Assembly (NCBI RefSeq): GCF_004365815.1
Contig: NZ_SODD01000046.1
Location: 1 to 19,874, forward strand
Origin: Breznakia blatticola
Lineage (GTDB): Bacteria; Bacillota_I; Bacilli_A; Erysipelotrichales; Erysipelotrichaceae
Length of the DNA: 19,874 nt
Direction: 5' to 3'
In this document: positions 6,141-19,874 of the stretch, in pieces
Layout of the letters: each line of letters begins with the position of its first letter
Numbering within the stretch: position 1 is the first letter of the stretch
Notes under the pieces: model-generated
Seen by the model: the letters and a program-made list of their open reading frames with translations, nothing else
What the model was told of the DNA's origin: nothing
Databases searched by the model: none
Translations under genes and position numbers: made by a program

Positions 6141-6184
6141 TATGTTCTCCTCCTGTATGTAACTATCATAAACTTTCTATCTTT

Positions 6185-6229
6185 AGTATACACGCGAACT
6201 ATCTTACACTTTCCTTACATTTTTGTAAG
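6185..6229 (-). promoter_or_regulatory. Bce-type response-regulator box plus -10 element upstream of the ABC transporter genes.
   Basis: The minus strand reads CTTACAaaaaTGTAAG (6214..6229), a third half-site TGTAAG (6203..6208), and then TATACT (6185..6190). The inverted repeat fits the TNACA-N4-TGTAA type of site that I recall being reported for BceR-like regulators. Confidence 0.6.
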
Positions 6230-6254
6230 AAAGAAAAAAGGTGCGATAGCACCT
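6227..6254 (-). terminator. Rho-independent terminator after the small DUF6440-like gene.
   Basis: Stem AGGTGC-tatc-GCACCT, followed on the minus strand by TTTTTTCTTTC. Confidence 0.75.
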
Positions 6255-6457
6255 CACTGATGAGAATCAATTTCTCCCATCATATATTTTGTAATAACGA
6301 CATTCCCATGACTATCTAAGAGTGGTGTTAATCCACTTCCTTCAGGAGTATTGACCAATAAATAATTGACCCCCGTAATTTGATCTTCAAGAATACGGAT
6401 ACCTTGAAGTGTTGTTTCTTCGTGGACAATAACAAATCGTTCCTTATCTGTACGCAT
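6254..6457 (-). CDS. Small conserved hypothetical protein (DUF6440-like by recollection), 67 aa.
   Basis: MRTDKERFVIVHEETTLQGIRILEDQITGVNYLLV...GLTPLLDSHGN. The ATG at 6457 is preceded by an AGGAGGA SD. The longer track ORF overlaps the upstream gene and is rejected. Confidence 0.7.
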   Translation of the reverse strand: MRTDKERFVIVHEETTLQGIRILEDQITGVNYLLVNTPEGSGLTPLLDSHGNVVITKYMMGEIDSHQ

Positions 6458-6465
6458 GATTCCTC

Positions 6466-6654
6466 CTAGTGAAATAAAATAAAGTAGATAACATAGACCC
6501 AACCAAGCAAACCGTGAACGATTGCCCAACCAATACTATGCCATGTTGTATAGCTTATCACCATTGCTAGTGCACTACCAAAGGACAATCCTTGTTTGAT
6601 CGTCTTATTCACAATTGTTGTTTTGCCATCTGCACGGCGTTCATATTCTGACAT
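6466..6654 (-). CDS. Small hydrophobic membrane protein of unknown function, 62 aa.
   Basis: One or two predicted TM segments (FGSALAMVISY..., IGWAIVHGLLGWVYVIYFILF). An AGAGGAGAAG SD is present. The gene is tightly packed between the HK stop and the next gene's SD. Confidence 0.6.
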   Translation of the reverse strand: MSEYERRADGKTTIVNKTIKQGLSFGSALAMVISYTTWHSIGWAIVHGLLGWVYVIYFILFH

Positions 6655-6665
6655 AGCTTCTCCTC

Positions 6666-7679
6666 TTACAATAAGTTTTTATAAAATCGACTATTGGGAA
6701 TTGTTATACTCACACAAGTACCTTTATGTACTGTACTATCTAGTCGTATAGACATATAAAGCTTGTCACATAACGCTTTACATAAATACAATCCCATACC
6801 TGTTGCTTTCTTTTCCAATCGTCCATTTTCACCAGTAAATCCACGATCAAATACTCGAGAAACATCTTTTGGATCAATTCCTATTCCTGTATCTGAAATA
6901 CGCACTTCAAGATCTTGATCATGTACTACAGTATCAATATGGATAGATCCACCAACATCTGTATACTTTAATGCATTATCTAATATCTGATGCAAAATGA
7001 ATTCTAACCATTTACTATCCATCGTGATCATGTGATCACTATTCGTAATTGATAATTTAATTTCTTTATAAATGAATCGCTGCTTTAAACGACGTACAGC
7101 TGCATTGATACTATCACTAAGCTGGATTTCTTTTAATACATAATCGCGTGAAGGATCACTACTTTTTGCATAATATAAAGCTTGCTCAATATAATCATTC
7201 ATCCGCTCGATTTCCAAGTCCAAAGCTTTACTTATTCCACTTGGATGATTGGTATTCATCAATTTCGCAGCGGTCAATGGACTTTTTATCTCATGAATCC
7301 ACATTTCGATATATTCTTTATAATCTTTTTCACGTTTCTCATATGTTGCAATTCGATCATTGTAGTTTTTATTAATTTCTTCTAAGGTTTGATATAGAAT
7401 TCTACCTTCTTGAAATTCTGGTTCATCAATAACTTCGATTAATAAACTTTTTTGATCCAGTCGTTCCAACTGGTCTTTAAGTTGTTTATAGTACCCATTT
7501 TTTTGTCGATACTCAATAAATAAAAAGCCAAAGATAAATGACCATATACTAACAAGAAAAAGTATAACGGTATCTATGCTTAGTTTAGAAGCAAGTAAAA
7601 AGAATCCTTGCAACGCACTTAACAATGCACCTAAAACTAAAATATAAAAATGCTCTTTTAGATATGTATACTTACTCAT
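6666..7679 (-). CDS. Intramembrane-sensing histidine kinase (BceS-like), 337 aa.
   Basis: Two N-terminal TM helices are separated by a very short loop. An H-box (IHEIKSPLTAA) and HATPase_c motifs (DNALKYT, DTGIGI, GTGMGL) are present. There is an 8-nt overlap with the RR gene. Confidence 0.92.
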   Translation of the reverse strand: MSKYTYLKEHFYILVLGALLSALQGFFLLASKLSIDTVILFLVSIWSFIFGFLFIEYRQKNGYYKQLKDQLERLDQKSLLIEVIDEPEFQEGRILYQTLEEINKNYNDRIATYEKREKDYKEYIEMWIHEIKSPLTAAKLMNTNHPSGISKALDLEIERMNDYIEQALYYAKSSDPSRDYVLKEIQLSDSINAAVRRLKQRFIYKEIKLSITNSDHMITMDSKWLEFILHQILDNALKYTDVGGSIHIDTVVHDQDLEVRISDTGIGIDPKDVSRVFDRGFTGENGRLEKKATGMGLYLCKALCDKLYMSIRLDSTVHKGTCVSITIPNSRFYKNLL

Positions 7680-8343
7680 TAATTAAATACCCCATACCAC
7701 GTTTTGTTTCAATAAAGTTTTCCAAATCAATATATGCAAGTTTCTTGCGTAGACGATTCATGTTTACCGTTAAGGCATTATCATCCACAAACATATCACT
7801 ATCCCACATCTCCGACATCAACTCTTCACGTAAAACAATACGATTTTTATGTTTGAATAATGTCGTCATAATGCGCAGTTCATTTTTTGTGAGTTCAATA
7901 CTTTGTTTATTGTAAGTAAGTGTACTTTTTGCGACGTCCAGTTGGACACCCGCAACAAATAATTTACTACCATTATCCCCTTCATAGCTACGATTTAATA
8001 ATCGTTCCATGCGTGCAAGTAAAATTTGTAAGTTATATGGTTTTGAGACAAAATCATCTGCGCCCATATGCATACTCATCAACTCATCTAAATCTGTATT
8101 ACGACTGGTAACAATGATCATTGGTACATTGCTTTGCTTACGTACTTCTTTGGCAATATGATTCCCATCAATACCCGGCAAGTTCAAATCAAGCAAAATC
8201 AAGTGTACATCACTATCAAGAATTTGCTTGCTCACATCACAAAAATCCACAACGGTTTGGACATCATATCCATTGGTTTGTAGAAACGTTGCAAGTTCAT
8301 CACGAATATTAATTTCATCTTCAACAATTAAGATTTTATACAT
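7672..8343 (-). CDS. OmpR-family response regulator (BceR-like), 223 aa.
   Basis: A receiver domain (MYKILIVEDE..., LILLDLNLPGIDG) is followed by a winged-helix C-terminus (TKNELRIM...ETKRGMGY). I chose the start at MYKILIV (ATG at 8343). No SD is visible. Confidence 0.88.
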   Translation of the reverse strand: MYKILIVEDEINIRDELATFLQTNGYDVQTVVDFCDVSKQILDSDVHLILLDLNLPGIDGNHIAKEVRKQSNVPMIIVTSRNTDLDELMSMHMGADDFVSKPYNLQILLARMERLLNRSYEGDNGSKLFVAGVQLDVAKSTLTYNKQSIELTKNELRIMTTLFKHKNRIVLREELMSEMWDSDMFVDDNALTVNMNRLRKKLAYIDLENFIETKRGMGYLINE

Positions 8344-8370
8344 ATTTTTATTATACATGAATTTTGTGGT

Positions 8371-8399
8371 AAAGCGACAAAAACGAGCATTCGCTCGTT
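8371..8399 (-). terminator. Rho-independent terminator after tethered sigma gene 1.
   Basis: Stem AACGAGC-gaat-GCTCGTT (8382..8399), followed on the minus strand by TTTGTCGCTTT. Confidence 0.65.
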
Positions 8400-8402
8400 C
8401 TC

Positions 8403-9716
8403 TCATGATTCATCATGTAATGTAATCTCTAACTCATTTCCTGCATAATCAGAAATATAAAGTACACCTGTTACTCCATATGGACAAGTTAGAATCATTT
8501 GATTCAATGATGGATGTATCGTTATTTCTTTGTTGATACGTACTCCATTTTCATAATAGCGAATACTTTCAAAGTTAACTTGTGATGCATCATCAGAAAC
8601 ATAAATTGTATACGTTGTTCCATCAATTTCATACCCTTGAACTACCGGACTATGCATATCAAATGTAGAAATACTCACGATTCGCTCATCAATTTGTTTG
8701 CCATCCTTCATTAGAGTTACACTATAACTTCCATTACTTGCGATGACTAGACTCTCTTGATTATTCACAAGAATTTGATCATACTCCATATTGGATGTAG
8801 TTACAGTTAGTGTAATTGGCTGATTTGTCCAATTTGTTGGATGCTGAATATCTGTAATACTTGCGAGTTCTTGTACAACAGGTTGTACATCTTGTATTTC
8901 AGGTGCTACTGCTGGCTGTTTTTCTTCTTGATTTAACATGATTGCACCTACAACACCACTTACTCCAATCGTGGAAGCAAGTGCAATTTTTGCCCCTACA
9001 CCAATTCCTACTTTACTTCCTGCTGCTGCACTTCCTACACCTATTGCACTTGTTTGTAATGCGAGATTGATCACTGGAGCATGAATATTCTTTGCTGCTG
9101 AAGCATATGCAACTTGAATTAGCATTGGTGAAATTGCAAATCCCGGTAATGATTTTGCACTAATCCCCTGTTTTTCCAACATTACTTTTAGTTTACTACG
9201 AAGATGATTCAATCGTGAATATACCGTACCTTCAGGTATTTGTAAAATGTATGCAATCTCACTTACTTGAAGTTCATCATAGTATCGCAAGAGTGCAACA
9301 TTTCGTAATGACGCATTTAAAGAATGAATGCAATTATATACGATTGCTTGCATCTCTTTATTCTCTATGATTTCTTTTGCTGTTTGTTGATTTACATCTT
9401 CGAAATCTTCCACGCGAACATCATCTCCTAAATCCAGTAGTTTCTTTTTCTTACGCTCATAATCATGGCAAATATTCATTGTAATACGTTTCATCCAAGT
9501 ATAGAATGCTTCAGGACTCTCCAATGTATCAATCTTGTTGTAAATACGGATAAATACATCTTGAACAACATCTTTTGCTGTATGTTCATTATGAAAATAA
9601 TCCCATGCTGTAAAATATACATTGTTTGCATATATCTCGTACAATTTCTGAAATGCCTCTTGATCGTTTTGCTTAACTCGATTCACTAACTCTACTACTT
9701 CTCTTTTCTCTTTCAT
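8403..9716 (-). CDS. Membrane-tethered ECF-type sigma-70 family protein (sigma region 2 + region 4, TM segment, ~175-aa extracytoplasmic domain), 437 aa.
   Basis: Region 2 reads DVVQDVFIRIYNKI...FYTWMKRITMNICHDY. The region 4 HTH reads LLRYYDELQVSEIAYILQIPEGTVYSRLNHLRSKLK. A Gly/Ala-rich TM segment lies at about 8934..9002, followed by a beta-rich C-terminal domain. The ATG at 9716 follows GAGGGGTG. Confidence 0.85.
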   Translation of the reverse strand: MKEKREVVELVNRVKQNDQEAFQKLYEIYANNVYFTAWDYFHNEHTAKDVVQDVFIRIYNKIDTLESPEAFYTWMKRITMNICHDYERKKKKLLDLGDDVRVEDFEDVNQQTAKEIIENKEMQAIVYNCIHSLNASLRNVALLRYYDELQVSEIAYILQIPEGTVYSRLNHLRSKLKVMLEKQGISAKSLPGFAISPMLIQVAYASAAKNIHAPVINLALQTSAIGVGSAAAGSKVGIGVGAKIALASTIGVSGVVGAIMLNQEEKQPAVAPEIQDVQPVVQELASITDIQHPTNWTNQPITLTVTTSNMEYDQILVNNQESLVIASNGSYSVTLMKDGKQIDERIVSISTFDMHSPVVQGYEIDGTTYTIYVSDDASQVNFESIRYYENGVRINKEITIHPSLNQMILTCPYGVTGVLYISDYAGNELEITLHDES

Positions 9717-9810
9717 CGAACACCCCTCACACAAACTACCAGTTCTAAATCTTTTTCTTTCATACAATTATGTCGCTACCCAAATGGATGAAAGAATTAT
9801 GTAGTATTTG

Positions 9811-9839
9811 ACACAAAACGAGGCAAATGGTTATGCCTC
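9811..9839 (-). terminator. Weak terminator-like hairpin between the LRR gene and sigma gene 1.
   Basis: Stem GAGGCA-taaccatt-TGCCTC followed by GTTTTGTGT on the minus strand. The stem is short, so read-through is plausible. Confidence 0.4.
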
Positions 9840-9860
9840 ATTTTGCGCTGCCCATAATAT

Positions 9861-11267
9861 TTAGTTTTCTTTCTTTTTCTTAATTGCGATTGCACCAATG
9901 GCAACACCACTAATCAATAAAGTGTATAGAAGTGTATTTGTTGTATATACATCACCAGTTGCAACACTTGGTTTACTTGATAATCCTTTCGATGGATCAT
10001 TTACTGGTTCAGTTGGTGTCGGTTTAACTGGATCCACTGGTTTTACTGGATCAATTGGATCTATTGGATCAACTGGGTCCACTGGATCGATTGGATCGAC
10101 AGGGTCAACAATCGGTGGTTGTTTTATACTAACCTTGGATACGATAAACATATACTCTTCTCTTTTTGCATCATCACCAACTACATACCCATCTGGAGAA
10201 AATAGTCTTTGTGGGCGAACTTTAATTTCATCAACTCTGTAGTAATAGTTTAGTGCTTCTAGTTCAGCGGCACGTAAAATAAAACTATGTTTATCTAGTA
10301 CTTCCCAATTACAATCTTCGTGTAATTCAACTTTATTCATATTAATACCATCAATAGTTACTACATACCCATCATCTGTTTCGTCAGCAATTAAATCAAT
10401 TACATTCGACTTTATCGCAAAATCTGCTTTTGTACTTCTATCATAGAATCTGTACTGTACGGGATCACCACCAATTTCCAAAAATGGAAATTGATTTCCA
10501 CCTAATATAACTGATAAATAATCATAATTTGAATCTGCCAGAAAATACGGATTACTAAAAAGAGTATTAAGAATTCCAACCGTATGAACATCAGATAAAT
10601 CGAAATATTCATCTGTGATTGGAACACTTTCAATATCTATAGAACCAGTCACCTTAACTGCACCGTTAATACTCGTAAGTTTTGGTAATGAAGATAATGA
10701 AAATACATCAATTTCACTTTCTTCATGTAGTATCAACGATGAAAGACTATCCATCGCCCATAAATTTAATTCTCCTATTTCACGCATATGTGAAACATCA
10801 ACACTTGTAACATTAGGAACTACAGACAATGTTAAATAATACATGAAATCTAGTGCATCTAAATTTACTGTCTTAAGATCATCTGTTTCATATACTTCTA
10901 AGGCATTTAGTTTGCTTCCTTCAGGTATTACTAAATTTGAACCTTTAAAATGCCCTAAAGTAAGAGATTTTGTCTCCAGTAATTCAATTCCTTTGAAATC
11001 ACGAATATCATATTCATCGCAATCAATATCTAGATCTTTAAATGGATTATTGGTTGCAAGTTCTTCCTTTGTGATGATACCATCACTTGCAATTTCTTTA
11101 CTTTCTACATAACTTCTAAAATTTGCATCAGGAAAATTTTCCTTTGTAACATGCACATCACTATCTACAACATTCATAGGTTGTAATGTTTCCAAATGTT
11201 GTACATTTGGTTGCATGATTCCTAGTGATAATGAAATCATGGCTACTGTTTTCAATACTAAATTCAT
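9861..11267 (-). CDS. Cell-wall-anchored leucine-rich-repeat surface protein with a Pro-x-Asp stalk, 468 aa.
   Basis: It has a signal peptide (MNLVLKTVAMISLSLG...), LRR-like ~22-aa periodicity in the region L..L.L....L..VD.S, and a PVDPIDPVDPVDPIDPIDPVKPVDPVKP stalk. The C-terminus carries SVATGD, a hydrophobic segment and KKKKEN. An AGGAGGAG SD precedes the ATG at 11267. Confidence 0.85.
   Translation of the reverse strand: MNLVLKTVAMISLSLGIMQPNVQHLETLQPMNVVDSDVHVTKENFPDANFRSYVESKEIASDGIITKEELATNNPFKDLDIDCDEYDIRDFKGIELLETKSLTLGHFKGSNLVIPEGSKLNALEVYETDDLKTVNLDALDFMYYLTLSVVPNVTSVDVSHMREIGELNLWAMDSLSSLILHEESEIDVFSLSSLPKLTSINGAVKVTGSIDIESVPITDEYFDLSDVHTVGILNTLFSNPYFLADSNYDYLSVILGGNQFPFLEIGGDPVQYRFYDRSTKADFAIKSNVIDLIADETDDGYVVTIDGINMNKVELHEDCNWEVLDKHSFILRAAELEALNYYYRVDEIKVRPQRLFSPDGYVVGDDAKREEYMFIVSKVSIKQPPIVDPVDPIDPVDPVDPIDPIDPVKPVDPVKPTPTEPVNDPSKGLSSKPSVATGDVYTTNTLLYTLLISGVAIGAIAIKKKKEN
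10021..10110. repeat. Ten tandem 9-bp units (GGATCNAYT-like) encoding the P-x-D stalk.
   Basis: Units read directly from the sequence: ggtttaact ggatccact ggttttact ggatcaatt ggatctatt ggatcaact gggtccact ggatcgatt ggatcgaca gggtcaaca. Confidence 0.85.
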
Positions 11268-11464
11268 TCCTTCTCCTCCTGTTAATATTTTATTAACCAC
11301 ACAACAATCCTTAACACTTTCTTGCACACGGATAGCAACGAGATCGATTATTCATATTAAGGATCCAAGAATATTCAGTTGAATATTTCTTTCAATACAT
11401 AGACGTAGCACATTTCGCTAACCATCAAACTTTTTTTACTTTTTATCAGCTCCTTACTTTTGCA

Positions 11465-11497
11465 TATAAAAAAACAGCTCGCACAATTTTGAACTGT
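11465..11497 (-). terminator. Terminator-like hairpin inside the sigma2-LRR intergenic region.
   Basis: Minus strand reads ACAGTTC-aaaattgtgc-GAGCTGT (one G-U pair), followed by TTTTTTTAT. Confidence 0.55.
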
Positions 11498-11717
11498 TTG
11501 TAAGGTTAAGCTATATTTGTCTAATTATACCGATATGACAAAAACTGTAATTTGGATAGACTAAAAAAATCCCTATTACATTACTTTCCATTATTGGCAC
11601 ATATACACATAGAGTACACACATACTCTACTTTCATAGTAAACAAGAAAATGAAAACTGTAAAGAAAAAGGATAGATATCTTTATTGTGATATTTTATGT
11701 ATGTTATAGATAATCCA

Positions 11718-11860
11718 GCAAAAAGAAAACAGCCTTTGCGTTCAGGGTAGCAAAAGACTGTTCTCCAACTTCGTTTATGTGTGATGGAAGTTTTGAAGGT
11801 ATGATTTTCCCTCTTGTATCACCCTTCACTTATTAGACGCTTTTTATAACGTATATCTTC
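11718..11860 (-). ncRNA. Copy A of a ~140-nt repeated two-hairpin element (candidate sRNA or 3'-UTR element), ending in an intrinsic terminator.
   Basis: It is colinear with copies B and C: GAAGAT...GTCTA.TAAG.GAAGGGT...CCTT..ACTTC[CA-rich loop]GAAGT, then a second hairpin CAGTCTTTTGC/GCAAAGGCTG (11731..11760) and TTTTCTTTTTG. It starts 16 nt after the sigma-2 stop codon. Confidence 0.45.
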
Positions 11861-11876
11861 AAAAAAGTTTGTTTTT

Positions 11877-13208
11877 TTATCCATTACCATCCCGGAGTAC
11901 CAATTTTAGCTCGTTTCCAGCATGATCATAGATGTAGACAATCTCTCTACTTCCGTATGCGCAATCAAGCGAAATGGTATTTGTTGATGGATCAAAACGA
12001 ATGTCTTTTTGAATATACTTCCCGTCTTTCTCACATACCGTTTGTGAGAAATCAATTCCGGATAGTGCATCAGCTAATGTAATCGTATATGATGTTTGGC
12101 TAATTGTATAATCAGGTACTGTTGGACTTGCAAAATCAAAGTTTTCAATACTTACTCTTTGCTCATCAATTTGTTTTCCTTCATACATCAAAGTGACTAC
12201 ATATTCACCATTATCTACAACTGTTAAATCTTGATTTCCATTAAGTAGTATTTCATCATATACATCACTTGTCGTTGTTACTTGCAAAGTGTATGCCGTA
12301 TTCGTCCAAGCCGTTGGATATGTAATATCTTTTATTTTTGCATGTTCTTTTACTGCAGTTGCTGGTTGTTGAACAATTGGATCTGGGTGATTATCTTCTA
12401 ATGGCGCACTTTGTGGTTGATTAAAAAAGTATAATCCTACTAAACTTGCTACACCAACAGTGGAAACGAGTGCTACCTTAGTTGATGCCATCCACCCAGA
12501 TTTCGTACTTGCCGTTGTTAATGCTTCTTTACTTACTCCAATAAGCGCAGCAGAAGACATAGTTACAGGAACTGAAATATGATTTGCACCAGCTTCAAAA
12601 GCAAGTTTCAATAACGTCGGAGTTAATACAAAACCTGACAAACTACGAGAAGATATCCCTTGTTCTTCAAGTACTTCTTTTAACTTTGCCTTCATACTAT
12701 GTAATCTAGAATGTACAGTTCCTTCAGGAATTTGTAATACATCAGAAATCTCAGAAACCGATAGTTCATCATAATATCGAAGAATTCCAACCGTACGAAG
12801 TGGTGTACGTAACGATTGTATCCCTTCATATATGGTTTGTTGAAGTTCTTTATTTTCTAAAATTGCGCTAGCATCTTTTTGATTGAAGTCCTCAAAGTCT
12901 TCTATTGTATATTCACTTCCCAAATCTACTACCTGGTCTTTCTTTTTATCATAGTCATAACATACATTATAGGTAATTCGAATAATCCAAGTATAAAATG
13001 CACCTGGATTATCTAATTTATGAATGTTTTTATGTATTCGAATAAACACATCTTGAACAACATCACGTGCAGTCACTTCATCATGAAAATAGTTTAGCGC
13101 TTTGAAATACACATTATTTACATACGCTCGATATAGTTCTTCAAATGCTTCTTGGTTTCCTTCTTTTACCTTCACTATCAGGTCTTTTAATTTCTCTTTA
13201 TCTTTCAT
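11877..13208 (-). CDS. Membrane-tethered ECF-type sigma-70 family protein, paralog of 8403..9716, 443 aa.
   Basis: The architecture and block-wise sequence conservation match those of 8403..9716 (DVVQDVFIRIH..., LRYYDELSVSEISDVLQIPEGTVHSRL). The TM segment lies at about 12423..12491 and the C-terminal domain is homologous. I chose the ATG at 13208, ~9 nt after AAGGAA. Confidence 0.85.
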   Translation of the reverse strand: MKDKEKLKDLIVKVKEGNQEAFEELYRAYVNNVYFKALNYFHDEVTARDVVQDVFIRIHKNIHKLDNPGAFYTWIIRITYNVCYDYDKKKDQVVDLGSEYTIEDFEDFNQKDASAILENKELQQTIYEGIQSLRTPLRTVGILRYYDELSVSEISDVLQIPEGTVHSRLHSMKAKLKEVLEEQGISSRSLSGFVLTPTLLKLAFEAGANHISVPVTMSSAALIGVSKEALTTASTKSGWMASTKVALVSTVGVASLVGLYFFNQPQSAPLEDNHPDPIVQQPATAVKEHAKIKDITYPTAWTNTAYTLQVTTTSDVYDEILLNGNQDLTVVDNGEYVVTLMYEGKQIDEQRVSIENFDFASPTVPDYTISQTSYTITLADALSGIDFSQTVCEKDGKYIQKDIRFDPSTNTISLDCAYGSREIVYIYDHAGNELKLVLRDGNG

Positions 13209-13394
13209 TTCACACATTTCCTTGATTTATTTTATTTATAACGGCATAGCGCCACTTCACTAATTATTGCTACCCTTCAAATCGAATATCATGTATCGAA
13301 TAATAGAAATTTTGTCCCCCTTAGTCTTTGATATAGCTTTAGCTTTCAATGTTGGTAAGGAGGACATTTCATTTATGTTAAGAAATATTTATGT

Positions 13395-16300
13395 TTATTT
13401 CTTTTGTAGTTTCTTGCGTGCAAATAATAAGCAAATAACAAACCCGCTCATCATTACACAAGCAAGTAATGCATTAGCTGCACTTACATCACCTGTTTTC
13501 ACACTTGGAATCACATCTAATTCCTTCACTGGAGATGTTGATGGTAATTCTGTAAATGGATCTTCAGGTTTTTCTGGTGTTGGTGGAGTTTCTTTTGGAT
13601 CTTCCACTTTCTTCGTATTATATGCTTTTACAACAATCACACCAGTTGTATCTTTTGTAACTTCAAATTCTACATTGGTTGCATCTAATACATATCCTTC
13701 AGGTGCTCCTACTTCTTTAAAGTAGTATGAACCTTCTGGTAAGTCTTTTACTTCAATGCGTCCATCTGCATTTGTTGTATATACCTCATCATTTACTTTT
13801 GTTGCATTTCCTTTTTCATCTACAACGTATAGATCAAATTCAGCACCCTCTAATGTAATCGCTTCATTACTATCTGTATCATACTTAATTAACTCTACAT
13901 CTGCAACATTTGGTGGAGTTTTCGTATTGTATGCTTTTACGATGACTTTCGTATTTGTGTTTTCATCAATTTCAAACATCACTTTTGCATCATCTAAGTC
14001 ATATCCATTTGGTGCTTTTACTTCTTTAAAGTAATATGAACCTTCAAGTAGATCTTCAACTGTGATTTTTCCATCTTTATCTGTAACATATGGAGTTGTG
14101 TTTACTTTCGTATCACCATTAGTAGCATCCACGACATATAAATCAAATTCTGCTCCTTCTAATGTTACTGATTCATTTGTATCTGCGTCATATTTAATCA
14201 GTTGAACATCTTCTGTATGTGGTGGGATTTTTTTATTATATGCTTTCACTTGCATCGTTGCTTTATCATCTTTGCTGATTGTAAATGGAATATGTTTGTC
14301 ATCTAGCTCATATCCTGAAGGAGCTTTTACTTCTTTAAAGTAATATGAACCTTCAAGTAAATCATTTACTTCGATTTCACCATACATATTTGTTGTGTAT
14401 GGTGTGCTATTCATTTTTGTATCACCATTATTATCCACTAGATATAAATCAAACTCAGCACCTTCAAGCGTAGTTGTTTCATTGCTGTCTAGATCATATT
14501 TTGTTAATTCTACACCACCAGTATATATTTTTTGGTTATACACAGTTGTATACACAACCTTTTGTGCATTTGCTTGTTCGATAACTTCAAATACAATCGG
14601 TTCATTAGACTCTACACCATTGTGTTGATAAACCGCACCGCTCATTTCATAATTTGGTGCTGCTTTTACTTCCTTCCAATAGTAGTAACCATCTTCAAGT
14701 CCACTAACAGTAATCATTCCCCAACTATTTGTAGCTCTCTTTGCAACGAGTGTATCACTACTACTTGGTGTTGTTCCATTTGCTACTTTATATAATTCGA
14801 ATTCTGCATTTGCGATAGTCAGTTGATTCTCTTCATCTTTAGTTGCTAAATCGTATTTATACAGTCCAGCACTTCCTTTTGCACCACCAATAATGGTTCC
14901 ACTATATTCGCTAAACGAAAGTTTAATCTCATTTGATTGCTCACTATTGTTGTTCCAGTATAAGTGTGCTTGATTCGTATATTCTGCACCTTCTGCCATT
15001 CCCTCAGGAAATCTTGCTTTAAAGTTTACACGGTATGCAGGAATTACATAATCAACAGCTGCTAACTCTTTATCTAAATACTCAGCTTGTTTATCTGTAT
15101 AGTAACGGTATTTTACGTCTACACCATTTTCCTCTTTTTCATACGTTAATGTCTTTAAATATGCCAAGAATTTACTATCACCGTTTGTTGGTTCTTGCGC
15201 CTTTACTGCTGGTAAATCTGTGAACTTAGCACCAACATATGATTTACTCGTTGGATCTTTATCTCCTAAATCACCAAAATAAACTATCATTGTTGTTTTA
15301 TCTAAACCGTTTGTATCTTTTTCACGATATAAAACAAGCGATTGACGATCCACATTCTCTAAAAATGCTGCCTTAAATTCATCATAGCTTAGACCAGTTG
15401 CAAATGAATAGTTATCATTTAACTTTAATGTCTCTGTACTGTCTTTATGATATTCGACTTTATCAAAGATACCTCTGGTATCTGCTCCATTTGTTTTATC
15501 TTCTGTATATAAAGCATACCATGCATATTGGCGATCTGAATATGCTCCTATTCCACCATTGTCAATATTTCGTTCTTCATAATCCAATTCATTTCCATCT
15601 TTATCTGTAGTCGCAAATACACGCATAATATGTTGAATTGAAATGGAATCAATTGTTTGGTTATAAGTCAATTCATCTTCCATGTACATTTTTGCACGTG
15701 CATTTGTAATTTTTCCAGACTCATCTTTTCTTCCATTGTATAAAGATATATTGTAATCTACACCTAAGTTAATCGTCCAACTTGTATACCCTTCTTTCTC
15801 ATAGAAGACACCTTCTTTTGAGATTTTTGTAGAATTATCATATGGATTTGCCCCAGTATCTTCAACTGGTTGTTTTTCTGGTGTTTGAATGTTACCTCCA
15901 TCAAGAATCGCATTACCATTGATTACAAGTCCTGAATCTAAACCATTTCCAATAATTTTACCTTCTGCACTTACTGATCCACCTTTAACTACATATGGAC
16001 TATTTGGATCTTCTCCAGCAGGAAGTTCTAAAATTGTAATTGCAATTGTTGTTGTTCCCGTTTTGTCATCTGTTTTAATGGTAAATTCTGCAATTTTATT
16101 ATTCGATCCATCATATAATGGAAATGATTTATCTGCAGTATCAAATACAAGTCCAAACCCTTGACCTGGTACTTTCGAATTATTAATTTCTTCAATTACA
16201 AATTTAAATGTATCGCCTTCTTTAAGCAAATTATCACCATCTGTAACATTTGTATATAAAGCTTCCCAAGCAATATTTAGTCTAACTTGACTATAGTTTT

Positions 16301-16517
16301 TTACTTGATAATTACCTTCTAGGTCAACCAAATCTTTGATATCCACAAAATTTAGTCCATTTGTTACTTCCACAGTTACCGTTGGTGCTTTAATCTTGTG
16401 ATATGCATTACCGTAATCTACATCACCTTCTGCTGCTAGTGCTGTTCCACCACTAGCAAATATCATGTTAATCATCATAAAAGCCGCTAATAAAACACTA
16501 AAAAATTTCTTCTTCAT
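13395..16517 (-). CDS. Large cell-wall-anchored adhesin: signal peptide, ~510-aa N-terminal adhesin region, four SpaA/Cna-B-like (prealbumin-fold) repeats and a sorting signal, 1040 aa.
   Basis: The signal peptide ends ...GTALA|AEG. The repeats carry LEGAEFDLY.VD...G.I.V.DL.EGSYYFKEVKAP.GY. The C-terminus carries PSVKTGD, a hydrophobic segment and RKKLQKK. An AAGGAGA SD is present. Confidence 0.9.
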   Translation of the reverse strand: MKKKFFSVLLAAFMMINMIFASGGTALAAEGDVDYGNAYHKIKAPTVTVEVTNGLNFVDIKDLVDLEGNYQVKNYSQVRLNIAWEALYTNVTDGDNLLKEGDTFKFVIEEINNSKVPGQGFGLVFDTADKSFPLYDGSNNKIAEFTIKTDDKTGTTTIAITILELPAGEDPNSPYVVKGGSVSAEGKIIGNGLDSGLVINGNAILDGGNIQTPEKQPVEDTGANPYDNSTKISKEGVFYEKEGYTSWTINLGVDYNISLYNGRKDESGKITNARAKMYMEDELTYNQTIDSISIQHIMRVFATTDKDGNELDYEERNIDNGGIGAYSDRQYAWYALYTEDKTNGADTRGIFDKVEYHKDSTETLKLNDNYSFATGLSYDEFKAAFLENVDRQSLVLYREKDTNGLDKTTMIVYFGDLGDKDPTSKSYVGAKFTDLPAVKAQEPTNGDSKFLAYLKTLTYEKEENGVDVKYRYYTDKQAEYLDKELAAVDYVIPAYRVNFKARFPEGMAEGAEYTNQAHLYWNNNSEQSNEIKLSFSEYSGTIIGGAKGSAGLYKYDLATKDEENQLTIANAEFELYKVANGTTPSSSDTLVAKRATNSWGMITVSGLEDGYYYWKEVKAAPNYEMSGAVYQHNGVESNEPIVFEVIEQANAQKVVYTTVYNQKIYTGGVELTKYDLDSNETTTLEGAEFDLYLVDNNGDTKMNSTPYTTNMYGEIEVNDLLEGSYYFKEVKAPSGYELDDKHIPFTISKDDKATMQVKAYNKKIPPHTEDVQLIKYDADTNESVTLEGAEFDLYVVDATNGDTKVNTTPYVTDKDGKITVEDLLEGSYYFKEVKAPNGYDLDDAKVMFEIDENTNTKVIVKAYNTKTPPNVADVELIKYDTDSNEAITLEGAEFDLYVVDEKGNATKVNDEVYTTNADGRIEVKDLPEGSYYFKEVGAPEGYVLDATNVEFEVTKDTTGVIVVKAYNTKKVEDPKETPPTPEKPEDPFTELPSTSPVKELDVIPSVKTGDVSAANALLACVMMSGFVICLLFARKKLQKK
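13614..14876. repeat. Intragenic tandem repeats encoding the SpaA/Cna-B-like domains. Three units have a 309-bp period and a fourth is more divergent.
   Basis: The marker string acttctttaa recurs at 13711, 14020 and 14329, which gives exact 309-bp spacing. The antisense shadow ORFs on the plus strand repeat the same peptide (YP.GA.TSLK). Confidence 0.85.
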
Positions 16518-16671
16518 AACTTGTCTCCTTATCTTTCACACATACAATTCACACACTGACCAAGTTTGTAATTCACTGCCTACTTTGCTTACACATTCAA
16601 AGTGCAACGAGAGTTCCATATCCTAGAAATCTATCTTTGAAGTCATCTACACAAACAGTTATCTATCAAAA

Positions 16672-16717
16672 CACTAAAAAAGAGTGTCTATGCTATGTTG
16701 AACAACAAGACACTCTT
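16672..16717 (-). terminator. Strong rho-independent terminator ~155 nt upstream of the large adhesin start codon.
   Basis: Perfect 10-bp stem AAGAGTGTCT/AGACACTCTT (16680..16689 and 16708..16717), followed on the minus strand by TTTTTAGTGTTTTG. Confidence 0.8.
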
Positions 16718-16834
16718 AAAAAATGTTGCCATTTTTCACCTAGAGAGTTTCCTTACCCACACATAACACACTGATATTTACACACTTTAACTCAATTTTG
16801 TATATCTTTCCCACTCCACACAAGTTCAAGTATT

Positions 16835-16976
16835 GAAAAGCAACCTTTAATTTTGAAGATTGCTTTCAGACTTCAAATTAAATGTGTGTATGGAAGTCCT
16901 GAAGTTCAACTCTTTATTTTCTTTTTTCTATGAGTATCGCTTCATTTATATAGACTTCAATTTTTCTAAAATCTTC
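16835..16976 (-). ncRNA. Copy B of the ~140-nt repeated two-hairpin element. It has its own upstream promoter, and its second hairpin lacks a U-tract.
   Basis: GAAGATTTT...GTCTAtaTAAatGAAgcgaTACTCA...GACTTC[catacacacatttaattt]GAAGTC, followed by GAAAGCAA/TTGCTTTTC. It is colinear with A and C. Confidence 0.45.
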
Positions 16977-16981
16977 GGAAA

Positions 16982-17010
16982 TTTATAATTTTTTTTCATT
17001 TTTTATTCAA
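16982..17010 (-). promoter_or_regulatory. Candidate sigma-A promoter (TTGAAT-N17-TATAAA) driving element B.
   Basis: On the minus strand, TTGAAT is at 17005..17010 and TATAAA at 16982..16987, with a 17-nt spacer. The predicted TSS falls at the GAAGAT where the A/B/C homology begins. Confidence 0.5.
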
Positions 17011-17061
17011 ATTTAATACCATTACTATTTGATTGATAGTTTTGATTGTTGTAAGGTGTAT

Positions 17062-17097
17062 TTCAATCAAAACAAAAGAACAATTTCTCGTTCTTTT
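17062..17097 (-). terminator. Rho-independent terminator downstream of the Cna-type adhesin gene.
   Basis: Stem AAAAGAAC-gagaaatt-GTTCTTTT followed by GTTTTGATTG on the minus strand. Confidence 0.7.
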
Positions 17098-17107
17098 TAA
17101 AATATAT

Positions 17108-17151
17108 AATCGTATCTTATTATCATATTTAACAGTATATAAGATACGATT
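17108..17151. other. Perfect 13-bp inverted repeat with an 18-nt loop, function unknown.
   Basis: aatcgtatcttat (17108..17120) pairs with ataagatacgatt (17139..17151). It lies ~100 nt after the Cna gene stop codon. Confidence 0.7.
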
Positions 17152-17253
17152 GTTATTGTCCACTAAGTTACATTATATAACAATTAGTTATAACTAAATA
17201 AACATATTGTTAATAACCTATAGTTTTAAACGTGAGAGTAACACTCATGTTTC

Positions 17254-19506
17254 TTATACTTTGCGTCTTCTACGAATTGCTACTAGTATACATAGAGATA
17301 TCCCACTAACAATCATCATTGCATATAGTATCGCTTTTGGACTTTGATCACCAGTACTCACTTTGCTTGAGGATACCACTGATGGATTAATAAGCAATTC
17401 CTTCTCTGGTTTCTTTGAAGGATTTGCTGGTGTCACAATTTCGGGTTGTTTAATCACTGGTGTTTCTACTACTGGTGGTTGTTCTATCATTGGATCTTCT
17501 GGTACAACAACTTCCTTCTTGTACGTATTAATAATCGTAAAATCCGTTTCTGTATTTTTTATTACTTTGGATGTATAGTTATTTGCTACTTCAAGTTCCA
17601 CAACTGTATAGGTTACCGATTTCCCATTAACTAACAACGGTAAATCATTCCATGTATATGTCCAATGATCTTGTTTTGTCACTATTGCATCAAATGTCGC
17701 AATTGCTACATGTTCATCTGTAGACTGAATCAGTTGAACCTTGATTTCATCAGGACGAATATCTAAATCATCATTCTCCCATTCTTTACTTACTGAAATG
17801 GATGTAAGTGGAAGTTTATATGTATTGGTAATTGTATAGTCATTTTTTGCATGTTCCTCAACACTTGCTGTGTAATTTTCTGCTACATGAATTTCATTTA
17901 CCGAATATGTAACTTCTTTATTTCCTTGAAAAGCAGGTAAATCATCCCATTGATATTCCCACACATTGTTGAGATCTTTTTCTATTTTTACGGTGTCCAC
18001 AATTGATGTATTTCCATCAACTGATTTTTGTAATTGCACTTCAACAAATGATGGACGTACCCACTGATCATCATCACCAGCCCACTTCTTAGTTACATGT
18101 ACACTGGTTCTTGGTACTTGATACGTATTTACAATCGTGAAATTATTAAATGAATTTTCAATTACTGTCTCAGTATAGTTATTTGGTACACTTGCTTCAT
18201 GTACTGAATATGTTACATATGTAGTACCTTCCAGCATTGGTAAATTGGTGAACTCATATTGCCATTGATTTTTTGCATTCAAATCAATTTGACCAATTTG
18301 CACTGGGCTTCCACCTTTTAGTGTTTTGTATAAATTCACAGTTACAGTTTCTGGATGTGTAATTTCTGGATCATCACTTTCCCATACTTTATGAACTTTC
18401 ACGCTAGTTGATGCATCACCAGAACCAACTCCACCAGTTACAAGACGTTGATCATATGCTTCGATTGTCCCAGATTCATAGTTATCTCCTTCAATCGTAG
18501 CTTTATTTAAATAGATTTGTGAAACTTTATTGTCTAAGATGCGTGTAGAATACTTAATATATAAAGATTTTCCATCCGCTTTCGCTTCTTGTTTTGTTGC
18601 TTCATCATTTGGGGTAAATACTCCACCGTTTTCTGGTAATGCTGTGGATGCACCACTAACAAGATTACCCAAATGTACTGTAAATCCATCACTTTGAAGT
18701 ACAAATCGCTCTGGATTTGTATTTGATGTATAGTATCCAAAATACTTCCAAGATGATGCTCCTTTATCATTCCAATCAATACGTGCGACTTGCACTGTGA
18801 TTGCTGGCTTTGTTGGATCATCTACTACAAGTTCATGTTTTCCAATAATTTCATCAATGACACTCGCATTGTAAATATCCTCAGCAGCAACATTTACACG
18901 AATCGTCCAATCGATAGTATTGGTTGTCGTATTCGCTGTTCCCCACTTTGTGATTTTTTCATCACGTGGTTCATAATTTGCTTTACCTACCCAAACATCT
19001 TGACTACTTGTATCACTGAATTGAAGTACAAGATCTTCAGCACCTGCTACTTCATTGCGATCCCATGATGCAACAACAAAAAAGTATCCTTTACGATTCT
19101 GCTTATTCTTAAAATAATCATTGAATGTAATGGTAATACTCTTATCTGATGCATTCATACTTGCATTTGCAACTACAATTTCCGTTTCATTATTTTCTGC
19201 GTCAATTTCTTTAAGCTCAAATTCAAGATTTTTCACACTTAATTGCGAAGGTAGTTGAATAACTACAGTATCTCCACTATTTACTTCATAAGTATCATCA
19301 AATGCATATTCATAATACACACGCATCGAATCATAGTATCCATAGTATTGACTATCTTCACCTGTATACGTTGTTACTTTTCCACTTACGATAAAATCGT
19401 TTTGTGAAATGCTACCTTGTGCTTCTGTAGCTAGTATTTTTCCCGTGTACGAGAACATTCCTGCAAGCACAAAAAAAACTACCACAATTTTACTTATTTT
19501 CCTCAT
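17254..19506 (-). CDS. Cna-type collagen-adhesin-like surface protein: signal peptide, collagen-binding-type A region, three Cna-B repeats, Pro-rich stalk and a sorting signal, 750 aa.
   Basis: The A region has SGDTVVIQLPSQL and IDWTIRVNV. The Cna-B repeats read V.K.W..DD...RP..V.V.L......W.Y.W.DLP......V.Y.V.E..V...Y. The C-terminus carries KVSTGD, a hydrophobic segment and RRRRKV. An AAGGAGGAA SD is present. Confidence 0.92.
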   Translation of the reverse strand: MRKISKIVVVFFVLAGMFSYTGKILATEAQGSISQNDFIVSGKVTTYTGEDSQYYGYYDSMRVYYEYAFDDTYEVNSGDTVVIQLPSQLSVKNLEFELKEIDAENNETEIVVANASMNASDKSITITFNDYFKNKQNRKGYFFVVASWDRNEVAGAEDLVLQFSDTSSQDVWVGKANYEPRDEKITKWGTANTTTNTIDWTIRVNVAAEDIYNASVIDEIIGKHELVVDDPTKPAITVQVARIDWNDKGASSWKYFGYYTSNTNPERFVLQSDGFTVHLGNLVSGASTALPENGGVFTPNDEATKQEAKADGKSLYIKYSTRILDNKVSQIYLNKATIEGDNYESGTIEAYDQRLVTGGVGSGDASTSVKVHKVWESDDPEITHPETVTVNLYKTLKGGSPVQIGQIDLNAKNQWQYEFTNLPMLEGTTYVTYSVHEASVPNNYTETVIENSFNNFTIVNTYQVPRTSVHVTKKWAGDDDQWVRPSFVEVQLQKSVDGNTSIVDTVKIEKDLNNVWEYQWDDLPAFQGNKEVTYSVNEIHVAENYTASVEEHAKNDYTITNTYKLPLTSISVSKEWENDDLDIRPDEIKVQLIQSTDEHVAIATFDAIVTKQDHWTYTWNDLPLLVNGKSVTYTVVELEVANNYTSKVIKNTETDFTIINTYKKEVVVPEDPMIEQPPVVETPVIKQPEIVTPANPSKKPEKELLINPSVVSSSKVSTGDQSPKAILYAMMIVSGISLCILVAIRRRRKV
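17518..18411. repeat. Three tandem Cna-B domain-encoding repeats (~97-100 codons each).
   Basis: Protein repeats at aa 366-463, 467-563 and 568-663, counted by hand from the start at 19506. Confidence 0.75.
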
Positions 19507-19573
19507 GGTTCCTCCTTATAAAACACACTTTGGTTTCACACACCAATTGTCTCTTTCAAGACTCAGCGAGGCT

Positions 19574-19603
19574 ATTATACTATGTTCATTTCAATTTTTC
19601 CAA
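19574..19603 (-). promoter_or_regulatory. Candidate sigma-A promoter of the Cna-type adhesin gene (TGGAAA-N17-TATAAT).
   Basis: A perfect TATAAT lies on the minus strand at 19574..19579 and TGGAAA at 19597..19602. This is ~68 nt upstream of the ATG and downstream of the element C terminator. Confidence 0.55.
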
Positions 19604-19621
19604 TGTAATAATATTTTTCTT

Positions 19622-19758
19622 TAAAACAAAAAGAAAAGCAATCCAGGTAGCATATGGATTGCTTTTCAAACTTCTTGGTGTGTGTGTGAAGTCCAAAAGG
19701 ATAACTCATATTGAGTACCCTTTCACCTTAATAGACTCTTTGAATAAAGAAAATCTTC
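19622..19758 (-). ncRNA. Copy C of the ~140-nt repeated two-hairpin element, ending in a strong intrinsic terminator.
   Basis: GAAGATTTT...GTCTAtTAAGgtGAAagGGTACTCA...GGACTTC[acacacacaccaa]GAAGTTT, followed by a perfect 13-bp stem GAAAAGCAATCCA/TGGATTGCTTTTC and TTTTTGTTTT. Confidence 0.5.
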
Positions 19759-19781
19759 ACTTTTTTCGATTATTTTATAAT

Positions 19782-19874
19782 GGCTTAATTCAACCGATGC
19801 GCACCTAACTTAGATTGTTACATGTATGATGATACATTGAAATGTAAGATTACCATATAAAAATAAGGAAGGTA
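19782..19874. repeat. Right copy of the perfect 93-bp terminal inverted repeat.
   Basis: Exact reverse complement of 2..94. It abuts AT-rich non-coding DNA whose sequence aligns with the promoter region of element B. Confidence 0.9.

Follow-up and report, generated by a model that had tools for sequence, protein, structure and literature searches.

Here, we analyse a 19,874-nucleotide (nt) stretch of bacterial DNA, hereafter the window, whose adhesin and sigma factor genes carry two mutually complementary sequence elements. One is a short UG-rich motif, the UG box, with a consensus of approximately (A)UGUGUGAA, i.e. about (A)UGUGUGA(A), which lies on the mRNA strand beside the ribosome-binding site. 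The other is a hairpin loop centred on CACACA, present in three non-coding modules, each preceded by a candidate promoter of the type used by extracytoplasmic function (ECF) sigma factors. From these elements we derive a model whose chances of being right seem to us evenly balanced: CA-loop RNAs driven by the sigma factors of the cluster would pair with the UG boxes at the ribosome-binding sites and repress translation. The window (G+C ~33%, all genes on the minus strand) is assigned to Breznakia, in the Erysipelotrichaceae, because protein searches found a homologue of one of its sigma factors, sigma-2, with 96% identity in 'unclassified Breznakia'.

A sequence-only reading of the window had placed a UG motif before all five adhesin and sigma factor start codons, and every coordinate that it listed is indeed present. 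GUGUG on the mRNA strand lies 2-39 nt before 5/5 start codons, those of sigma-1, sigma-2, the LRR gene, and the SpaA-type and Cna-type adhesin genes (plus-strand CACAC(A) sites at 9728, 11298, 13211, 16537, 16550/16552, 19524 and 19537/19539). It begins at -16 in the sigma-1 mRNA (start codon 9716), at -36 in the LRR mRNA (11267), at -7 in the sigma-2 mRNA (13208), at -39/-37/-24 in the SpaA-type mRNA (16517) and at -37/-35/-22 in the Cna mRNA (19506). In the direction of transcription, the boxes are the following:

19524..19546, minus strand: UG boxes of the Cna 5' untranslated region (UTR), UUGGUGUGUGAA-N6-GUGUGU, then 6 nt, then AAGGAGG
16537..16562, minus strand: UG boxes of the SpaA-type 5' UTR, CUUGGUCAGUGUGUGAA-UUGUAU-GUGUGAAAGAU-AAGGAG
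13211..13216, minus strand: UG box of sigma-2, between the Shine-Dalgarno sequence (SD; AAGGAA) and the AUG at 13208
11298..11303, minus strand: UG box of the LRR gene, UUGUGUGG, with a small hairpin between the box and the SD AGGAGGAG that bridges the 20-nt gap
9728..9733, minus strand: UG box of sigma-1, UUGUGUGAGGGG, abutting the SD

The two large adhesin leaders share the GTGTGAA-N6-GTGTG layout described in that reading, the distance to AAGGAG being 6 nt and not the 7-8 nt it had given. A sixth gene of the cluster, encoding a VWA-like surface protein of 747 residues upstream of Cna in related assemblies (just outside the window), also carries a box, AUGUGUAGUGUGUUAAU-GAGGAGG. At the four adhesin/VWA mRNAs the box is 4-6 nt 5' of the SD, and in sigma-2 and its homologue from Erysipelotrichaceae bacterium MTC7 it falls between the SD and the AUG. 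The UG-box RNA is weakly structured, and the boxes lie inside or border the ribosome footprint. Upstream of Cna there is a sigma-A-type promoter, TTGGAA-N18-TATAAT, the best match in the window, and upstream of the VWA gene another with an extended -10 element, TGGTATAAT. Since the boxes of Cna and VWA lie downstream of these promoters, they are most likely part of the transcribed 5' UTR.

It is the placement of the motif that constitutes the signal: CACAC/GTGTG occurs 33 times in the whole window against 37.6 expected, with no overall enrichment. On the gene strand, GTGTG reaches 5.7/kb in intergenic DNA compared with 0.58/kb in coding DNA. As a background we used ~45 kb of Breznakia genome, including ~25 kb of flanking sequence added to the window. 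GTGTG lies within positions -45..-1 of 6/6 cluster genes and of 0/20 other Breznakia genes (Fisher 4.3e-6), and even TGTG occurs in this interval in 0/20 of the latter, which include one more SpaA-domain adhesin gene from a different operon. The 4-6-mer that best discriminates the cluster from the other genes is GTGTG/TGTG. GTGTG is therefore not common near start codons in this background, and, as had been stated, none is found at the starts of the response regulator, histidine kinase, ABC, FtsX and P-type ATPase genes.

The motif is also kept beyond the window. The comparison loci came from a second Breznakia strain (L001), from MTC7 (L004), from a 3.2-kb metagenomic contig (L085) and from a distant sigma relative (L173). 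The sigma factors of MTC7 and L085 are 57% and 54% identical to sigma-2, respectively. The MTC7 SpaA adhesin gene has AAUUGUAUGUGUGAAAUAAGGAGG before its AUG, the same 16-mer as in the window, with a single proximal box; the MTC7 sigma leader reads AAAGGAAUGUGUGACAUG, in which the box occupies the same position between SD and AUG as it does in sigma-2; and the L085 sigma leader, CUAUGUGUGAAGGUGUGUAUG, keeps the GUGUG motif. The distant sigma of L173 (28% identity) has neither UG box nor module, with a similar promoter type nearby. Between the window and L001, the module-bearing intergenic regions diverge by 1.0-2.6% and the adjacent Cna, SpaA and sigma-2 coding sequences by 3.4-6.2%, and P2, P3 (the hairpins described below) and the UG boxes are unchanged. 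Thus, cluster specificity, cross-genus conservation, 5' UTR location and SD-linked position all support the earlier proposal of a shared control site overlapping or flanking the ribosome-binding site. That proposal left the level of control between post-transcriptional and transcriptional; the evidence favours the former over the latter. What it missed altogether were the complementary CACACA-loop RNA modules with their own candidate ECF-type promoters, and extra GUGUG clusters further upstream in the leaders.

Several observations on the boxes and their neighbourhood can be recorded here. At 13208-13217, the open reading frame (ORF) finder starts sigma-2 at an in-frame ATG within the UG box (AUG-UGU-GAA-AUG), as it does in MTC7; SD spacing favours the second AUG (13208), the alternative being a three-residue N-terminal extension. 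We rejected a start-stop or leader-peptide reading of the motif (GUG-UGA, or AUG-UGU-GAA before sigma-2), since L085 does not keep the frame and sigma-1 lacks an upstream AUG. A pairing with 16S rRNA, through ACACACC near position 1400, would fit the Cna box alone. In MTC7, about 1 kb past the sigma gene, a gene for a periplasmic sugar-binding protein, with a kinase and an AraC-type regulator behind it, has two UG boxes (AUGUGUGUAAAGAAGUAUGUGUGUC) before its SD (L004 12190-12256), and may be an extra target outside the adhesin set. Upstream of the MTC7 sigma (L004 9930-9965) and of the L085 sigma (~836-870) we noted GAAGTA-N16/17-GTGT(G/T), that is, a module-like -35 element with GTGT where GTCTA would be expected, which may be a variant autoregulatory promoter or a coincidence. 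Across window positions 8403-19874 and L001 3388-14770, divergence is 0.7-2.6% in the LRR gene, in sigma-1 and in most intergenic regions, and several indels rearrange the DNA ahead of module 1; such mosaic divergence between the strains suggests recombination or diversifying selection on surface proteins.

Alignment of the three long adhesin leaders revealed a shared module of ~100-117 nt upstream of the Cna, SpaA-type and LRR genes. In each module a candidate ECF-type promoter, GAAGAT-N15/16-GTCTA(T/A), is followed by hairpin P1, hairpin P2 and a terminator hairpin, P3. P1, the 5' hairpin, begins about 7-9 nt past the promoter. In P2, an ACUUC/GAAGU stem, whose 5' arm ACUUC(C) is anti-SD-like, closes a loop of 13-18 nt with CACACA at its centre; P3 reads AAGCAAUC...GAUUGCUUUUCUUUU. 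The modules and the elements beside them are the following, with the fold z-score and the covariance-model score in bits:

19727..19758, minus strand: candidate ECF-type promoter of module 1, GAAGAT-N16-GTCTAT, its function predicted from the sequence
19627..19726, minus strand: CA-loop RNA module 1, upstream of Cna; P2 loop ACACACACACCAA; z -6.0; 82 bits
19574..19603, minus strand: sigma-A-like promoter between module 1 and Cna, TTGGAA-N18-TATAAT
16946..16976, minus strand: candidate ECF-type promoter of module 2, GAAGAT-N15-GTCTAT
16829..16945, minus strand: CA-loop RNA module 2, upstream of the SpaA-type adhesin; P2 loop CAUACACACAUUUAAUUU; z -3.8; 80 bits
16758..16821, minus strand: cluster of four GUGUG just 3' of module 2, pairing with the P2 loop in the extended minimum free energy (MFE) fold
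16675..16717, minus strand: second terminator-like hairpin of the SpaA leader, by sequence; MTC7 has an equivalent hairpin (L004 ~7230-7260)
11830..11860, minus strand: candidate ECF-type promoter of module 3, GAAGAT-N16-GTCTAA, starting 17 nt past the sigma-2 stop
11718..11829, minus strand: CA-loop RNA module 3; P2 loop CAUCACACAUAAAC; z -3.3; 92 bits
11596..11630, minus strand: GU cluster after module 3, with the hairpin AGAGUA-UGUGUG-UACUCU, pairing with the P2 loop in the extended MFE fold
11466..11497, minus strand: second terminator-like hairpin of the LRR leader, by sequence

Module 3 thus lies in the 3' region of sigma-2 and in the upstream region of the LRR gene at once. Three further copies occupy equivalent places in MTC7, one immediately past the sigma gene and the other two before SpaA. 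Promoter, P1, P2 and P3 are common to all six modules of the two genera. The motif GAAG(A/C)-N15/16-(G/C)TCTA directly precedes P1 in 6/6 copies by sequence match; with a -35 element of GAAGAT/GAACCT, a spacer of N15-16 and a -10 element of GTCTA/CGTCT, it has the form of an ECF sigma promoter (-35 GAAC-like, -10 (C)GTC-like, spacer 15-17 nt). Five modules folded alone give the same three-hairpin MFE structure (z -3.3 to -6.5) with the CA loop unpaired, and P1 and P3 of the sixth are seen in an extended fold. RNAalifold recovers P2 and P3 with double-sided changes at 8/19 pairs; P3 covaries, and P1 varies in sequence among copies yet always pairs. The modules therefore have the generic structure of a terminator-ended small RNA, a compact fold closing with an intrinsic terminator.

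In the sequences searched, the modules occur only at these loci. With a covariance model, the known copies score 73-95 bits and nothing else in ~127 kb of related loci exceeds 31 bits; across 1.37 Mb surrounding other ECF sigma genes, no match reached E<=0.1. A regular-expression search for the P2 pattern (CTTC, CACACA, GAAG) through roughly 2 Mb matched only the Breznakia and MTC7 loci, and an Rfam 15 cmscan of both strands of the window at E<=1 gave 0 matches, including to LhrC, GcvB, Firmicute small RNAs and leaders. On the gene strand of the window, 6/8 occurrences of CACAC are intergenic, and all six fall within the three P2 loops. Small ORFs within the modules were considered and set aside, as they are not conserved between copies. 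In modules 1-3, GAAG and CUUC recur in the arms of both P1 and P2, which hints at alternative conformations that would pair the P1 3' arm with the P2 3' arm, or the 5' end with the P2 5' arm. In the long adhesin leaders, the second terminator-like hairpin between GU cluster and gene suggests an additional attenuation step. We rejected the GU clusters as antiterminators of these hairpins, as the cluster resembles the 5' arm of the hairpin and not its complement.

Modules and UG boxes are complementary to each other: perfect Watson-Crick runs of 7-10 nt connect P2 with the start regions of 8/9 targets. The Cna boxes include a 10-nt perfect complement to the P2 loop of module 1 (CACACACCAA/UUGGUGUGUG), which also matches SpaA (UUCACACAC/GUGUGUGAA, plus ACCAAG/CUUGGU). 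The LRR module matches SpaA as well (UCACACAUA/UAUGUGUGA), and the SpaA-type boxes, of which the proximal one, AAUUGUAUGUGUGAAA, is identical in MTC7, have 9-nt perfect complements in P2. Module 3 and the MTC7 module 3 start 17-35 nt past the stop codon of a sigma gene, and are perfectly complementary to the start region of that same gene over 8 nt in sigma-2 and 10 nt in MTC7 (UGUCACACAU/AUGUGUGACA). The CA loop thus has the properties of an accessible seed of a base-pairing small RNA, being unpaired and complementary to several start regions. Moreover, the order CUUCC..CACACA in the modules mirrors GUGUG..GGAGG in the adhesin mRNAs, so that loop pairing could extend over the SD.

Since both sides share a (CA)n/(UG)n core, we also compared the flanks, holding the GUGUG cores and the SD fixed and shuffling the rest. 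The summed best duplex energy was -163.7 kcal/mol against -143.5 +/- 7.4 kcal/mol after shuffling (z -2.7, 1 of 500 shuffles), and a looser shuffle control gave z -2.7 and 3 of 500. On cofolding, the six Breznakia targets gained -6.6 to -14 kcal/mol, and 19 non-targets gained 0 to -6.6 kcal/mol. When the modules are folded together with their downstream sequence, a long-range CA:GU helix enclosing P3 replaces P2 in 5/5 cases. The MFE and centroid structures agree on this helix for Cna (z -4.3) and for MTC7 modules 2 and 3 (z -6.6 each), and it appears in the MFE structure only for SpaA and LRR. A GU cluster follows each module, at 16821-16758 and 11630-11596 in the window and at ~7165-7195 and 11553-11570 in MTC7. 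The motif with its specificity and conservation, the modules, their folds and this complementarity are all computed directly from the DNA.

The module promoters are presumably served by the two sigma factors of the cluster, because they have an ECF-type consensus, modules and sigma genes are strictly co-located in two genera, and GAACTT-N16-GTCTAA is found near the L173 relative. Sigma-1 (8403-9716) and sigma-2 (11877-13208) consist of ECF sigma regions 2 and 4, a linker, one transmembrane helix and a C-terminal domain of ~155 residues. AlphaFold models this domain (pLDDT, the predicted local distance difference test, 88) as two Ig/FN3-like beta-sandwiches, which in the PDB are best matched by ectodomains of cell-adhesion proteins and by bacterial adhesins (SraP, SiiE); on this model, each is a one-protein, membrane-tethered sigma factor. 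The family comprises five protein clusters at no less than 47% identity among 5.8 billion proteins. No full-length relatives besides that of MTC7 were found among 185,579 species genomes or metagenome contigs, where the remaining matches in the sigma-family scans were generic ECF sigmas of 25-37% identity. A whole-protein profile search added no new members, and one made with the C-terminal domain gave no matches at all, its own family included, and is hence uninformative. In L173, the sigma gene is followed by the GAACTT-N16-GTCTAA sequence (11120-11150) ahead of a 692-residue gene product, and it adjoins a giant Flg_new/Big_3 surface protein and a two-component system. The ECF-type promoter class may be shared more widely than the CA/UG system.

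We infer module transcription, the driving sigma factor, pairing in vivo and a repressive effect in the following scheme. Three RNAs per genome, of ~100-117 nt, would be made from the ECF-type promoters, presumably through the membrane-tethered sigma factors, and would end at P3. The CACACA loop of P2 would nucleate pairing with (A)UGUGUGA(A) beside the ribosome-binding sites of the Cna, SpaA-type, LRR, VWA-like and both sigma mRNAs. Pairing would spread toward the SD, block binding of the 30S subunit and lower translation. The outcome would be coordinated post-transcriptional control of the adhesins together with negative feedback on the sigma factors. In read-through or co-transcribed RNA, the CA element would instead pair in cis with the GU clusters just downstream, and in the sigma mRNAs a 3' UTR CA element would pair with the 5' end of its own message. 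We favour action in trans because VWA and sigma-1 have boxes yet no module in their own leaders, because a sigma-A-like promoter separates module 1 from Cna, with a spacer whose length is kept in L001 through three indels, and because P3 looks like a strong terminator in half of the copies. Owing to that promoter, module 1 would be a separate transcription unit. Action in cis is also likely, since the folds contain long-range CA:GU helices. Given their distance from the sigma stop codon, module 3 and its MTC7 counterpart probably form the 3' terminus of the sigma mRNA, which would face a complementary 5' end.

Several points weigh against this scheme. The U-tract of P3 is weak in 3/6 copies and strong in the other three, and the modules may not accumulate as separate RNAs. 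The sequence of the P2 stem is itself conserved, with little covariation in the core, and could equally be a protein-binding site. Because both partners are low-complexity (CA)n/(UG)n sequences, loop and target show no true compensatory covariation. With p about 0.002-0.006, the flank test gives a modest result and was designed after the data had been seen, several targets are not significant in it singly, and the cofold energies of targets and non-targets partly restate the presence of the motif. The sign of the regulation, repression, is a guess from the position of the boxes. Finally, the comparison spans two genera and one short contig, and the distribution is very narrow (two genera and a few metagenomic contigs).

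Among the alternatives, we could imagine that CA and GU elements act purely in cis, as leader or UTR structures of one long transcript in which a helix enclosing P3 sets translation or stability (or, in the sigma genes, a 3' UTR-5' UTR helix does), with no small RNA acting in trans. This fits the replacement of P2 by the CA:GU helix in all five extended folds, the GU cluster that each module has of its own, the two modules 17-35 nt after a sigma stop codon and the perfect 10-mer between MTC7 module 3 and the start region of that sigma. However, VWA and sigma-1 carry UG boxes without a module in the same intergenic region, a sigma-A-like promoter stands between module 1 and Cna, and the strong-looking terminator of three P3 copies would part the CA element from its downstream partners. 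As the whole explanation, cis action thus seems unlikely to us, yet it is compatible with trans action and both may coexist. It is tempting to speculate further, with a low degree of belief, that the two are joined in a surface-sensing circuit, in which the tethered ECF sigma factors with their Ig-like ectodomains would transcribe dual-mode CA-loop RNAs before each adhesin. RNA terminated at P3 would be a trans repressor of UG-box mRNAs, including the sigma mRNAs; on read-through, the CA loop would be captured by the built-in GU cluster and disarmed, and the downstream adhesin would be translated. Whether the outcome is 'repress all adhesins' or 'express this adhesin' would thus depend on how efficiently P3 terminates.

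Alternatively, the UG box could be the site of an RNA-binding protein that controls initiation, the CA-loop RNAs being unrelated or antisense decoys. Repeated short motifs in unstructured RNA are typical of protein-bound sites, such as those of CsrA and TRAP, and the short UG motif, of which leaders contain two to four irregularly spaced repeats, is located in unstructured RNA near the SD; the conserved P2 stem could be a protein site too. Nevertheless, the cluster holds no conserved gene for an RNA-binding protein. A protein would also leave unexplained why the exact complement of the motif occurs six times in a conserved hairpin loop, at these loci only, and why complementarity continues outside the core. 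We find this explanation rather improbable.

It is very unlikely that the site acts at the DNA level, whether it belongs to a promoter or is the operator of a transcription factor such as a CRP/Rex-like protein or the OmpR-type regulator encoded beside sigma-1. In favour of such a site, TGTGTGAA resembles CRP/Rex half-sites, the two large adhesin leaders have a direct repeat with 13-bp spacing, a Crp-family gene lies ~5 kb away, and GAAGTA-N16/17-GTGT precedes sigma in MTC7 and L085. Yet the sites are direct repeats or single copies without any palindrome (neither TGTGA-N6-TCACA nor TTGTGAA-N4-TTCACAA), the 13-bp spacing does not correspond to a helical repeat, and there is just one proximal box at MTC7 SpaA. 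They track the SD and start codon and no promoter, lying downstream of the likely Cna and VWA promoters, and their orientation is strictly strand-specific, the reverse occurring only in P2 loops. The response regulator, moreover, is absent from the MTC7 locus. Distances to GAA-type -35-like hexamers are inconsistent (10, 14 and 23 nt), on which ground we also rejected GTGTG as a variant -10 element.

Adhesins are often phase-variable, and a perfect 10-nt inverted repeat (CACACACCAA/TTGGTGTGTG) flanks 128 bp with the sigma-A-like promoter upstream of Cna, as if CA/GT repeats served promoter inversion or (CA)n/(GT)n slippage. This we hardly credit: the other four leaders have no comparable inverted repeats and the window and its flanks no recombinase gene, so the locus does not have the make-up of a fim- or cwpV-type invertible promoter; L001 is collinear with the window with identical repeat lengths; in other Breznakia loci, modules and UG boxes likewise lie on the gene strand and have identical sequences; and, for slippage, tracts of 3-5 units are short. 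Explanations without function (chance, local composition, or similarity left over from duplicated leaders) would agree with the window-wide motif count and with possible paralogy of the Cna/SpaA leaders and of the two sigma genes, but such an absence of function is scarcely believable given the 6/6 versus 0/20 contrast, retention of the motif across genera with sigma proteins 47-57% identical and diverged surrounding non-coding DNA, its retention in both sigma paralogues despite a different position relative to the SD, and intergenic divergence below that of the flanking Cna, SpaA and sigma-2 coding sequences.

The genes of the window, in the direction of transcription, are arranged as follows:

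19506-17254, minus strand: Cna-type collagen adhesin, the first in the direction of transcription
16517-13395, minus strand: SpaA-domain (SpaA-type) adhesin, after Cna
13208-11877, minus strand: sigma-2, after the SpaA-type adhesin; ECF sigma with transmembrane helix and tandem Ig-like ectodomain
11267-9861, minus strand: 'LRR' protein, secreted and membrane-anchored, after sigma-2
9716-8403, minus strand: sigma-1, a paralogue of sigma-2 (~48% identity) with the same architecture
after sigma-1, minus strand: OmpR-type regulator, kinase, small ORFs, ABC/FtsX and P-type ATPase genes
window edge, minus strand: partial gene for a PfkB-family sugar kinase

The stop codon of sigma-1 overlaps the start of the OmpR-type regulator (8403-8406). 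This regulator belongs to a block at 6140-8406 that further contains the kinase, two small ORFs (one DUF6440), the ABC ATPase and the FtsX-type permease, resembles Bce-type peptide-sensing modules in layout, and is not present beside the MTC7 sigma.

If the pairing between CA loops and UG boxes is real, these RNAs would form an undescribed small-RNA family whose regulon consists of adhesins and their own sigma factors, in the Erysipelotrichaceae, a gut lineage for which, to our knowledge, there are essentially no known RNA regulators. Through it, an unusual one-component, membrane-anchored ECF sigma factor would also be tied to the control of surface proteins at the post-transcriptional level. 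In enterobacteria, the sigma-E-dependent RNAs RybB, MicA and MicL are transcribed by an ECF sigma factor, repress envelope proteins and feed back on the sigma response. An ECF sigma, repression of surface proteins and feedback are the points of likeness. Those RNAs, in contrast, act with Hfq in Gram-negatives and lower sigma-E activity indirectly, whereas in the CA-loop system the sigma mRNAs carry the target motif themselves and the link from sigma to promoter is a predicted one.

Other relatives in function are found in the Firmicutes. In Staphylococcus aureus, a motif in the icaR 3' UTR pairs with the SD region of its own mRNA and represses translation of this regulator of biofilm and adhesion (PMC3868564). 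Similarly, module 3 and MTC7 module 3 follow a sigma stop codon and are complementary by sequence to the start region of that sigma, a potential 5' UTR-3' UTR interaction. The icaR motif, however, is UCCCCUG directed at the SD, and the CA-loop element also has its own predicted promoter and sibling copies in the cluster. In Listeria monocytogenes, the multicopy small RNAs LhrC1-5 bind the start region of the mRNA for the LPXTG adhesin LapB and block its translation (PMC4132741). Here the likeness lies in sibling small RNAs in a Firmicute, an envelope-sensing regulator and a cell-wall-anchored adhesin mRNA as target. In contrast to the CA-loop modules, LhrC has a CU-rich seed (UCCC) that targets the SD itself, depends on the LisRK two-component system and not on an ECF-type promoter, and is not encoded directly upstream of its targets; the modules have no Rfam match.

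Functionally, the CA-loop/UG-box system appears closest, by analogy, to GcvB of enterobacteria, with the polarity reversed. As described in PMC3879156 (citing Sharma et al. 2007), GcvB has a GU-rich seed that recognises C/A-rich elements in or just upstream of many ribosome-binding sites and blocks initiation. Both would use one short low-complexity seed against a repeated dinucleotide-type motif that many mRNAs carry in or just upstream of their ribosome-binding sites. The GU clusters behind each CA-loop module, in turn, are reminiscent of the sponge derived from an mRNA that is described for GcvB (PMC4474525). The differences are nonetheless clear: in the CA-loop system the RNA is CA-rich and the mRNAs GU-rich, so that its seed is not of the GcvB type; the seed sits in a hairpin loop and not in a single-stranded region such as R1 of GcvB; the host is of the Gram-positive type; and the RNAs are three sibling copies beside their targets, without any sequence or Rfam relationship to GcvB. 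Because there is no Rfam match, and because seed, promoter type and organisation differ, the CA-loop RNAs, as judged from their sequences, belong to none of these families (GcvB, LhrC, the sigma-E small RNAs or icaR). Should the pairing prove real, they would constitute a compact mirror image of the GcvB seed logic, with CA in the RNA and UG in the targets.

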